DNA of 13,968 nucleotides, taken from the IMG/VR virus record IMGVR_UViG_2537562191_000040, positions 1 to 13,968 of that record, one strand, 5' to 3'. Under the pieces are notes generated by a model, which saw nothing but the letters and a program-made list of their open reading frames with translations, was not told where the DNA came from and ran no database searches. This DNA is from a virus. Its lineage: Duplodnaviria > Heunggongvirae > Uroviricota > Caudoviricetes. The translations under genes and the position numbers were made by a program. Positions 2,067 through 4,175 of the stretch are shown piece after piece (position 1 is the stretch's first letter; every line of letters starts with the position of its first letter).

Positions 2067-3218
2067 ATGAATGTAATAGATTTGTTTTCTGGCGTTGGAG
2101 GTCTAAGTCTTGGTGCTGCACGTGCTGGATTTGATGTTAAAATGGCAGTTGAAATTGATCAACATGCTATTAATACTCACGCAATTAATTTTCCAAGAAG
2201 TTTGCACGTCCAAGAAGATGTTTCTTTACTAAATGCAGAAATAATTAAGGGTTTTTTTAAAAACGATATGCCCATAGATGGTATTATTGGCGGTCCTCCG
2301 TGCCAAGGATTTAGTTCAATAGGCAAGGGGAATCCTGATGATAGCAGGAATCAGCTTTACATGCATTTCTACCGTTTAGTATCAGAATTACAGCCATTAT
2401 TCTTTTTGGCAGAAAATGTTCCAGGTATTATGCAAGAGAAATATTCTGGCATTAGAAATAAAGCATTTAATTTGGTTAGCGGTGATTATGATATTCTTGA
2501 TCCCATCAAGGTAAAAGCATCTGATTATGGTGCTCCAACTATTCGAACTAGATATTTTTTTATCGGTGTAAAAAAATCATTGAAGCTTGATATTTCAGAT
2601 GAAGTATTTATGCCTAAAATGATTGATCCGGTTACTGTAAAAGATGCTTTGTATGGATTACCAGATATTATCGATGCCAATTGGCAATCAGACTCTGAGA
2701 GTTGGCGAACAATTAAAAAAGATCGAAAAGGGGGATTTTATGAAAAATTATGGGGGCAGATCCCTCGGAATGTTGGTGATACAGAATCGATCGCTAAGTT
2801 AAAAAATAATATCATATCTGGATGTACCGGAACATTACATAGCAAAATCGTCCAAGAGCGTTATGCTTCCTTATCTTTTGGGGAAACTGATAAAATTTCA
2901 AGATCTACAAGATTAGATCCAAATGGTTTTTGCCCGACTTTAAGGGCGGGAACCGCTAGAGATAAAGGAAGCTTTCAAGCCGTCAGGCCGATCCACCCTT
3001 ATCATCCAAGAGTGATTACACCAAGAGAAGCTGCTAGATTACAAGGCTTCCCTGATTGGTTTCGCTTTCATGTAACTAAATGGCATAGTTTCAGACAAAT
3101 AGGAAATAGCGTGTCACCAATAGTTGCTGAATATATATTAAAGGGGCTGTACAATTTATTAAATAAAAGAGTACAGCCCGAATATTTAAACCATAATTCT
3201 TTGGAAGTTAGGGTATAA
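2067..3218 (+). CDS. DNA (cytosine-5)-methyltransferase (383 aa)
   Basis: Carries the canonical m5C methyltransferase motifs: motif I DLFSGVGG (AdoMet binding), motif IV GGPPCQGFS (catalytic Pro-Cys), motif VI ENV, and C-terminal motifs around RxxTPREAARLQGFPDWF and GNSV, with a variable target-recognition region between them. Confidence 0.9.
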   Translation: MNVIDLFSGVGGLSLGAARAGFDVKMAVEIDQHAINTHAINFPRSLHVQEDVSLLNAEIIKGFFKNDMPIDGIIGGPPCQGFSSIGKGNPDDSRNQLYMHFYRLVSELQPLFFLAENVPGIMQEKYSGIRNKAFNLVSGDYDILDPIKVKASDYGAPTIRTRYFFIGVKKSLKLDISDEVFMPKMIDPVTVKDALYGLPDIIDANWQSDSESWRTIKKDRKGGFYEKLWGQIPRNVGDTESIAKLKNNIISGCTGTLHSKIVQERYASLSFGETDKISRSTRLDPNGFCPTLRAGTARDKGSFQAVRPIHPYHPRVITPREAARLQGFPDWFRFHVTKWHSFRQIGNSVSPIVAEYILKGLYNLLNKRVQPEYLNHNSLEVRV

Positions 3219-4175
3219 CCTATAGTATTTATAATAGTTATCCCGTTCATTTTCGTTTAAAGAGAACTCTTCAGCGGCTGCCTGATATGCTTCTTTATCA
3301 GGCAGTTTACTATCTAAATTTATCTTTTCTTTAATTGTTAGTGTTGGTATTGCTATTTCTTGCACGTCTTCCCAATTTGTTGAATAAAATTGCCAGTTAG
3401 AAAGGTCGCATGCCTTAGATAACTCTATATATTCTTGTTCTGAGGAGAAAAAACCTGATATTGTCAACATGGTATGACTGCCATCATTATATTGATTTAA
3501 GGATAATGGGTAATACTGAATCTTATCCTTACGTCCTGAAAGACCACGTTCTATTGCTGATCTAAAAGCGTTTGTAATAATTCGTATTAAAAGAGCTTTA
3601 ATCTTACGATCTGAAAGATCTGCATTTGATATCTGAAGATTAAAATCAAGATACTTTTTCCCAAGCAATGATTTTAATGAATTAATAAAAGCTTCTTTAA
3701 AAATATCTAAACTTTCTCCAACTCTACGTTGGTAATAAGAACTAGGATTTATGGGGAAGGTGACCTTCAAAATATCAAAAGAGCTTACTTTAGTACTTAG
3801 TAAGTGTATATCATCTAGATCCGTTTGTATTTTTTTCGGGGAGGCATAGTCTAACCATGTTATTGATGGTTTAGAAAAACTATAATCAAGAATAAAGTCA
3901 TGAGCTGATATTAGCTTACAATCAATACAATTATAAGGCAAATTATATTTTTGTCTGATGTGAGTAGACTCTTGTTCTTCGAGAGAAATCATATCAGAAA
4001 GAGCGATACGATTATGCATGATTCTAAAATCTTCAAGCATCGGACCACCAAAACCTATATATGTATATTCTTGAATATTTAGTCTTTTGCTTAAGAGGTT
4101 TAGGCTTTCGAGAAAAATCTCTCTATCAATAGACTTATTATGCCTTAAGTGATAGGGAATGTATTGTCCAGACAT
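3186..4175 (-). CDS. Hypothetical protein (329 aa), operon partner of the GHKL ATPase; function unknown, candidate effector/nuclease
   Basis: Long AT-rich ORF. Its ATG overlaps the stop of the upstream gene (TGATG) and is preceded by a GAGGTG Shine-Dalgarno sequence. Its 3' end overlaps the 3' end of the methyltransferase gene by 33 bp in convergent orientation. I recognise no catalytic motif. Confidence 0.7.
   Translation of the reverse strand: MSGQYIPYHLRHNKSIDREIFLESLNLLSKRLNIQEYTYIGFGGPMLEDFRIMHNRIALSDMISLEEQESTHIRQKYNLPYNCIDCKLISAHDFILDYSFSKPSITWLDYASPKKIQTDLDDIHLLSTKVSSFDILKVTFPINPSSYYQRRVGESLDIFKEAFINSLKSLLGKKYLDFNLQISNADLSDRKIKALLIRIITNAFRSAIERGLSGRKDKIQYYPLSLNQYNDGSHTMLTISGFFSSEQEYIELSKACDLSNWQFYSTNWEDVQEIAIPTLTIKEKINLDSKLPDKEAYQAAAEEFSLNENERDNYYKYYRLYPNFQRIMV

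Follow-up and report, generated by a model that had tools for sequence, protein, structure and literature searches.

A predicted methyltransferase-fold protein is the regular partner of a MORC-like ATPase in a mobile cytosine methylase cassette

The DNA analysed here, hereafter the window, is the 13,968-nucleotide (nt) stretch that makes up positions 1 to 13,968 of the IMG/VR virus record IMGVR_UViG_2537562191_000040 (Caudoviricetes). On its minus strand, at 3186..4175, lies a 990-nt gene for a protein of 329 amino acids (aa), directly downstream of the gene for a 463-aa MORC-like ATPase (4175..5566, minus strand). Open reading frame (ORF) analysis, Pfam, the RefSeq coding sequence, a structure model and fold searches together identify the 329-aa protein as a divergent member of the Pfam family PF20553 with the predicted class-I fold of S-adenosylmethionine (SAM)-dependent methyltransferases. 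In a scan of one genome per species we found 80 further loci for this family, and in all 80 a homologue of the ATPase is encoded directly upstream on the same strand; in 67 a homologous cytosine methylase lies in the flanks. We propose, with a probability of roughly 45%, that the MORC-like ATPase drives a restriction-modification-like module without a nuclease, in which the 329-aa protein is the subunit that uses SAM and engages the substrate.

PF20553 (Methyltransf_35, "putative O-methyltransferase") was matched with a score of 300.4 bits, the gathering cut-off being 27 (E 2e-89), with residues 1-328 of 329 aligned to profile positions 1-308 of 309, and the same profile was found in all 57 homologues of our first search. 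The RefSeq product name for the protein is "O-methyltransferase", the NCBIfam and PADLOC profiles gave no match to it, and PHROGs places it in phrog_19983, function unknown, the ATPase being listed there as unknown as well. An exhaustive search returned 2,127 cluster representatives of PF20553 proteins (50% identity, E <= 1e-3). Nearly all of the best 150 of these are stand-alone proteins of ~300-380 aa, and none of the 150 has a fused extra domain.

An AlphaFold model built with 35 diverse homologues as input (pLDDT, the predicted local distance difference test, 88.7; pTM, the predicted template modelling score, 0.87) places a class-I SAM-methyltransferase Rossmann core between strand β1 (38-42) and the β6-β7 hairpin (220-244). 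Its seven-stranded sheet follows the canonical β1-β7 order of class-I enzymes, β1-αA through β5 and then the β6-β7 hairpin, and outside this core the model has an N-terminal helix (12-28), a helical insert (144-212) and C-terminal helices (246-320). The models are thereby wholly accounted for, that of the 329-aa protein by the methyltransferase fold and that of the ATPase by a GHKL+S5 fold plus helices. A first-pass annotation, made by eye from the letters of the window, had suggested that the protein might represent an uncharacterised fold, and this is refuted by the Pfam match, the Rossmann model and the Foldseek fold searches. The same annotation had seen no PD-(D/E)xK, HNH, PLD or HEPN signature in the protein, which agrees with our finding that Pfam, NCBIfam and PADLOC contain no nuclease match for it and with the methyltransferase fold of the model; neither it nor the ATPase contains a GIY-YIG or other nuclease domain by these three collections. 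Nor was the protein assigned to a well-characterised non-defence family, an outcome that the annotation had named as one that would refute it: PF20553 is itself named "putative", and no characterised member was found.

Conservation was assessed in an alignment of 79 family members that are 24-36% identical to the window protein. The sites typical of class-I enzymes are kept: G41 (73/79) and G43 (76/79) after β1, E66 (78/79) at the end of β2 and D109 (79/79) at the end of β4. Also invariant or nearly so are Y39, D49, R74, W107, T139, Y229, D231, M236, P277, E283 and P322, together with an N-terminal motif peculiar to the family, Y8-H9-L10-R11-x-N13-K14...R18; residues 144-215 form the most variable segment. 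Since G41/G43, E66 and D109 occupy class-I SAM-binding and substrate-positioning sites, there is good indirect evidence that SAM binding has been retained, and as the invariant polar residues are so numerous, catalysis has probably been retained too. Judged by the same alignment, the protein is conserved beyond the needs of a mere scaffold. It is mildly acidic, with a median isoelectric point (pI) of 6.3 versus 9.3 for the cytosine methylase.

We asked which kind of methyltransferase the protein resembles. The nearest solved structures found by Foldseek were nucleic-acid base methyltransferases, namely Trm1 (E 5.5e-6) and RlmI-like and RsmD-like enzymes; many of the matches were small-molecule methyltransferases, and no O-methyltransferase ranked above N- or C-methyltransferases. 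A sequence-profile search of the PDB returned only spurious HMG-CoA synthase matches and no link to a solved methyltransferase. Trm1, the tRNA G26 N2,N2-dimethyltransferase, is the closest solved structure, yet it is ~10% identical to the 329-aa protein, the two superpose with a TM-score < 0.5 and the core alone matches. The D-P-F-G motif of Trm1 is not present in the protein. Since no solved enzyme is close, the "O-methyltransferase" label stands for "methyltransferase fold" only, and O-methylation is without specific support.

More specific assignments were tried and rejected. A ribose 2'-O-methyltransferase of the RrmJ/FtsJ type was suggested by visual resemblance, but the K-D-K-E tetrad is not kept, K137 being conserved in less than 90% of the 79 sequences, and hhalign of the family profile against RlmE of E. 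coli gave a probability of 0.5%, which is a weak test. An exocyclic-amino methyltransferase (N6-A, N4-C or N2-G) was rejected because motif IV, (D/N/S)-P-P-(Y/F/W), is missing and W-L-D109-Y110-A-S-P follows β4 instead; the hhalign probability for RlmJ was 0.2%, again a weak test. We also considered hypermodification of cytosine in DNA, modelled on CmoX and on tRNA mcmo5U, by carboxymethylation followed by O-methyl esterification. In a CmoX-type C5-carboxymethyl pathway the C5 methylase is expected to carry Arg at the motif-X position otherwise held by Asn (PMC12783734); the methylases linked to the present family never do (0/63), which excludes this route.

The 329-aa gene is tightly joined to the ATPase gene. 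Its ATG lies at 4175..4173 and its stop codon, TAA, at 3188..3186, and the ATPase stop codon, TGA at 4177..4175, shares one nucleotide with that ATG, giving a TGATG stop/start overlap that can be read directly at 4173..4177 (minus strand). A Shine-Dalgarno-like hexamer, GAGGTG, lies within the 3' end of the ATPase gene at 4181..4186 (minus strand), 5 nt before the ATG, where its sequence suggests that it serves the downstream start; the minus-strand text of the junction reads GAGGTG-AAGTG-ATG-TCT-GG. In the program-made ORF list this frame begins at a GTG one codon before the ATG and is entered as 3186..4178. As homologues begin M-S-G, the ATG is likely the start, and the RefSeq coding sequence is the identical 990 nt. 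Guanine-plus-cytosine (GC) content across the 329-codon region is 31-34%; the length of the ORF in such DNA, the Pfam E value and the 2,127 cluster representatives together place it beyond chance as a real gene.

This arrangement recurs in the other genomes. The partner start overlaps the ATPase stop in 64 of the 80 loci (59 as ATGA), lies within 11 nt of it in 13 and is farther away in three, so that overlap or abutment is kept in 77/80; for five loci with two possible start codons one was chosen, and both choices fall within -8 to +1 nt. The first-pass annotation had described the ATG that shares a base with the ATPase stop and the GAGGTG inside the ATPase 3' end, which the sequence confirms in every detail, and its view of the protein as a translationally coupled partner of the ATPase is borne out by the 80 loci, where the two genes form an operon with the ATPase gene first and its partner obligately second. 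The two proteins may be co-expressed stoichiometrically.

The ATPase itself matches only HATPase_c_3 in Pfam and has a GHKL+S5 architecture. Across 32 sequences its four GHKL motifs for ATP binding do not vary, nor does the lysine K325 of the S5 domain (T-T-T-K-R-G), so that its ATP-binding motifs are intact. In MutL, MORC and GyrB the GHKL catalytic base is a Glu; in this family the position is held by an invariant Asp, D34 (D-L-L-D-N-C-V-D-G). Its closest structural relatives are DNA- and chromatin-associated. The bacterial protein differs from eukaryotic MORC2, MORC3 and SMCHD1 in lacking CW, coiled-coil and hinge domains and in having Asp for the catalytic Glu. No nuclease domain was found in it. 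It could not be placed in any one paraMORC family, and its alignment consensus shows no evident ExxxH motif of the paraMORC2 kind.

The third gene of the cassette encodes a 383-aa C5-cytosine methylase on the plus strand (2067..3218), identified by profile matches and by a near match of residues 1-367 to PDB chain 3g7u, "Cytosine-specific methyltransferase" (E 1.3e-254); in PADLOC it matches the MTase_II, DruM and DrmMII models. By ORF coordinates, the convergent 3' ends of the methylase and methyltransferase-fold genes overlap by 33 bp (3186..3218, both strands), and the same convergent overlap is present in enterobacterial provirus loci. The methylases linked to the pair in other genomes form one family (median catalytic-domain identity 0.52) and are catalytically intact: the catalytic Cys is present in 63/63, and motif X has Asn in 58/63, Ser in 5/63 and Arg in 0/63, the window methylase reading G-N-S-V. 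The methylase gene may be upstream and co-directional, downstream and convergent, or downstream and co-directional. A Vsr gene accompanies the cassette in 26/80 loci (L009, L016, L043, L046, L051, L066, L075, L077 and 18 more) and lies within 300 nt in 25, and in one locus (L073) an HhH-GPD glycosylase-family gene stands in its place. Neither gene adjoins the E. coli cassette.

The 80 loci come from Proteobacteria, Cyanobacteria, Firmicutes, Acidobacteria, Chloroflexi, Verrucomicrobia, Latescibacteria and other phyla. When every ORF within 5 kb of the pair was clustered, no fourth conserved gene emerged besides the facultative Vsr, and no linked or fused nuclease or superfamily-II helicase as a conserved cassette gene. 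The 329-aa protein evolves fastest, with a median pairwise identity of 0.32, compared with 0.44 for the ATPase and with 0.52 and 0.38 for the catalytic and target-recognition domains of the methylase. Its pairwise divergence correlates with that of the ATPase (rho 0.45, permutation p <= 0.002) and does not track that of the methylase (rho <= 0.14). Since divergence correlates within the pair only, we regard the ATPase and the 329-aa protein as one co-evolving unit around which the methylase has been exchanged more freely.

Several loci depart from the common layout. In L010 (6616-13709) two divergent ATPase+PF20553 pairs mirror-flank one cytosine methylase. Eight loci (L013, L014, L017, L018, L022, L024, L030 and L034) encode, besides the ~470-aa ATPase, a second and longer HATPase_c_3 protein of 546-610 aa, which directly adjoins the methylase in seven and in L030 lies ~3 kb away on the pair's other side; these longer proteins may be of the nuclease-fused paraMORC3 type of Iyer et al. 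Directly behind the pair in the myxobacterial locus L053 (6035-12323) lie genes for a 1,198-aa helicase, an MZB (DUF1998) protein and a PLD nuclease, an arrangement like DrmA/B/C of DISARM, and no methylase was detected in this locus.

The cassette travels on mobile elements. Window positions 1800-5900 are present as a 100% identical chromosomal segment in many Shiga-toxin-producing E. coli (O157:H7, O111) and matched 176 of 5,426 complete genomes; 173 of the 176 E. coli matches are >= 99% identical, a nearly clonal set that carries little information on selection. Strain PA20 of O157:H7 carries the cassette in a lambdoid prophage, with replication genes on one side and the DUF1367/DUF1364/DUF1133 (Q-like) late-regulator region on the other, and the cassette genes are named "DNA cytosine methyltransferase", "O-methyltransferase" and "ATP-binding protein" in RefSeq. 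The three-gene stretch has 31-38% GC versus ~50% in the flanks. In IMG/VR the full trio is present in 48/48 provirus loci, of which 21 are P2-like, the trio there being flanked by the portal gene gpQ and by DinI/gpA, and at least 23 others are lambdoid. The P2-like gpQ-gpA locus is an experimentally validated anti-phage hotspot (Rousset et al., PMC9122126), and Table S5A of that study records, uncommented, "DNA_methylase + HATPase_c_3 + hypothetical" arrangements there; we found no indication in PMC9122126 that this arrangement was assayed, and the "hypothetical" protein could not be confirmed by sequence as PF20553. Among sequenced phages the sole match was the Pseudomonas filamentous phage PfAC20, whose accessory end carries an ATP-binding protein, a hypothetical protein and a cytosine methyltransferase as ORF1-3; its sister phages have IetAS, Avs or toxin-antitoxin systems at the same end, and its authors, using PADLOC, scored only an "incomplete RM" (restriction-modification) system. 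We conclude that the cassette is horizontally mobile cargo of temperate-phage accessory and defence hotspots.

Published expression data and natural variants bear on the genes themselves. In strain Sakai, ECs1954 and ECs1955 shift jointly as the cells leave exponential growth (-2.6 and -3.2, same cluster; PMC2241611), so that, if our assignment of these genes is right, the operon is transcribed in the lysogen. In O157:H7 strain F6294 (L083, 4001-4369) a deletion has taken the methylase and the C-terminal two thirds of the 329-aa gene and left the ATPase intact, and in provirus L130 (7995-8988) a frameshift splits the PF20553 gene. Both are single events, and both fit the 329-aa protein as a component that can be lost, or is necessarily lost after loss of the methylase.

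Further features surround the cassette. Promoter-like sites lie ~50 nt before the ATPase ATG (TTGACT-16 nt-TAAAAT, 5619..5646, minus strand) and ~30 nt before the methylase ATG (TTAAAA-18 nt-TATAAT with an upstream TG, 2005..2034, plus strand); these are consensus matches only, and such sites are no more frequent in the region than expected from shuffled sequence. Window positions 813-12995 are collinear with the PA20 prophage (99.93%). Inverted, 100% complementary copies of an IS3-family insertion sequence, which we take to be IS629-like, bracket the region at 42-813 and 12994-13766, a one-base offset at ~163/13645 splitting the match. They enclose 12.2 kb, including the cassette, in the manner of a composite transposon, and the right copy appears to interrupt an antirepressor gene. 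After the Q-like gene come two tRNA genes, one with anticodon CAT at 7646-7721 (Met by ARAGORN, tRNA-Ile in RefSeq) and a tRNA-Arg(TCT) at 7822-7898, followed by a TerB-family gene at 7996-8499. The position after the Q-like gene and tRNAs is that at which Stx phages carry stx.

Several known systems share parts of this logic. In type III Mod and in BREX PglX/BrxX a SAM-binding, methyltransferase-fold subunit engages DNA within an ATP-dependent defence complex, and BREX interferes without degrading DNA, a likeness that we use by analogy only. Those proteins are N6-adenine methylases with DPPY-type motifs, large target-recognition domains and their own protective methylation. The present cassette differs from both in that protection falls to a separate cytosine methylase, the motif of the 329-aa protein is D-Y-A-S-P, and neither helicase-nuclease nor BREX genes are present. 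Iyer, Abhiman & Aravind (2008, PMC2292703) predicted a class of neighbourhoods on laterally mobile DNA that combine a (para)MORC ATPase, a C5-cytosine methylase and often Vsr, and proposed the GHKL+S5 ATPase as the DNA-manipulating engine of a restriction-modification-like system. Our cassette shares with them the GHKL+S5 ATPase, the linked cytosine methylase, the frequent Vsr and the mobile setting. Those neighbourhoods, however, carry superfamily-II helicases and/or nucleases (HNH, restriction-endonuclease fold, TIR, fused RecB-like) that the cassette lacks, and unlike them it has a SAM-methyltransferase-fold protein as its constant partner. The "HEF_HK + Response_reg_2 + C5-methylase" duplets of Bellieny-Rabelo et al. 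(2021, PMC8011034), with which we group the "Kinase-methylase" candidate in Table S2 of Rousset et al. (2022), follow the same logic of a C5 methylase, HATPase_c_3 and a small Rossmann-type partner; in the duplets, however, the partner is response-regulator-like (Response_reg_2/TadZ_N) and the ATPase has HEF_HK, whereas here the ATPase has HATPase_c_3 only and the partner is PF20553. Already known, then, are PF20553 in Pfam, PHROGs and RefSeq, the (para)MORC-methylase-Vsr theme since 2008 and the arrangement as an entry in a published table. In the literature we found no published description of the trio, none that gives this ATPase family a methyltransferase-fold protein as its constant companion, and no experiment on the trio.

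According to our favoured reading, the cytosine methylase would mark host and prophage DNA with 5-methylcytosine, while the ATPase and the methyltransferase-fold protein would form a complex that makes up the "restriction side". Within this complex the methyltransferase-fold protein would bind SAM and engage a nucleic-acid target. It might read or load there, as type III Mod and BREX PglX do, or else methylate some atom that is not cytosine C5; a dimer of the ATPase would provide ATP-driven clamping. Since the cassette has no nuclease, interference would proceed without DNA degradation. The first-pass annotation had put the gene forward as the likely effector if the module restricts DNA, and its position in a methylase-linked cassette fits such a component; it may act as an effector. 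A more specific form of this proposal, which we consider unlikely though still credible, is that the trio constitutes a nuclease-free self/non-self system in which the PF20553 enzyme, loaded or clamped by the MORC-type ATPase, disables DNA without 5-methylcytosine by blocking or toxic methylation or by MORC-mediated compaction.

A number of observations weigh against this favoured role. PADLOC (PADLOC-DB 2.0) gave no match for the ATPase or the 329-aa protein. The latter is acidic and has no recognisable DNA-binding or target-recognition domain, and its variable segment 144-215 shows no co-variation with the target-recognition domain of the methylase (rho 0.03, p 0.27). The missing co-variation does not favour a recognition site shared by the two proteins and, like the acidic pI, weighs against a sequence-reading role. 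With Asp at the catalytic-base position, the ATPase may hydrolyse slowly and behave as a switch, not as a motor. The deletion in F6294, being one event, could be neutral. Lastly, six cyanobacterial loci (L002, L004, L005, L006, L007 and L008) carry the pair without a linked methylase, so that cells evidently survive with the pair where no methylase adjoins it. Three of these (L002, L004 and L008, from Nostoc and Scytonema) share flanking genes that by eye resemble NADH-dehydrogenase subunit genes, indicating conserved chromosomal synteny. The six methylase-less copies of the pair read F-G-G-H at motif I, not F-G-G-P.

The same evidence can be read in other ways. The 329-aa protein could be a true methyltransferase of nucleic acids, the second in the cassette, which with help from the ATPase places a further mark, protective or epigenetic (for example on an exocyclic N); the cassette would then shield prophage or host DNA from restriction or regulate genes, with no attack on foreign DNA. 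Phage-borne orphan methylases are common, the SAM motifs and many polar residues are invariant, the nearest solved structures act on nucleic-acid bases and there is no nuclease anywhere in the cassette. However, D109-Y110-A-S-P stands where (D/N/S)PP(Y/F/W) would be expected, an obligate MORC-like ATPase in 80/80 loci is hard to explain for a protective methylase, a methylase of variable order and orientation around a fixed pair is typical of restriction-modification organisation, and the cassette sits in validated defence hotspots; we consider this explanation rather unlikely. If, instead, the fold were kept non-catalytically, to bind SAM or the ATPase, the protein might gate the ATPase as an adaptor or SAM sensor, for instance by sensing SAM depletion by phage SAM-degrading enzymes. 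This would suit an acidic protein with no recognisable target-recognition domain whose cofactor-binding positions are the best-conserved features of its core, and BREX PglX requires SAM as a cofactor for DNA binding and defence (PMC11842806). Invariance of D109, Y229, D231, E283 and the YHLRxNK motif exceeds what SAM binding needs, however, and leaves such a role doubtful.

A role in repair, in which the ATPase and its partner would help very-short-patch repair of the T:G mismatches that arise from deaminated 5-methylcytosine, has a precedent in the stimulation of Vsr by MutL in E. coli. It would explain the Vsr genes beside the cassette, as well as the single glycosylase gene, and a mismatch-repair role was raised for some (para)MORCs by Iyer et al. 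in 2008 (PMC2292703). Yet two thirds of the loci, including the window and 48/48 provirus loci, have no Vsr match, the cyanobacterial pairs without a linked methylase lack Vsr too, a SAM-methyltransferase fold has no obvious part in mismatch repair and the hotspot location points to conflict cargo, all of which makes this role improbable. Taken literally, the Pfam and RefSeq names would make the protein an O-methyltransferase acting on a small molecule or on a protein carboxyl or hydroxyl group, unrelated to nucleic acids, and the many small-molecule enzymes among the Foldseek matches and the acidic pI agree with this. The name, however, reflects fold-level similarity, with no O-methyltransferase outranking N- or C-methyltransferases; the K-D-K-E tetrad is not kept, K137 being variable, and the comparison with RlmE by hhalign found nothing. 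As DNA is indicated both by the obligate MORC-like partner and by the linked DNA methylase, whether or not Vsr is present, we regard the literal meaning of the name as very improbable.

Prokaryotic MORC-type ATPases were predicted in 2008, and a tie between MORC proteins and DNA methylation runs from bacteria to plants and animals. The cassette offers a minimal version of this association, with three genes in ~3.7 kb in the genetically tractable E. coli O157:H7. Its PF20553 component is widespread (~2,100 clusters at 50% identity, in many phyla) and occurs in validated hotspots, yet PADLOC recognises neither it nor the ATPase. Should the cassette not defend its host, the "O-methyltransferase" label that RefSeq has propagated to many genomes would still need qualifying. 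If it does defend, a system with no recognisable nuclease and with a methyltransferase-fold protein on its "restriction" side would be mechanistically new, and if the trio in fact disables unmarked DNA, bacteria would possess in it a prototype of the way in which MORC proteins and DNA methylation are linked in eukaryotic silencing.

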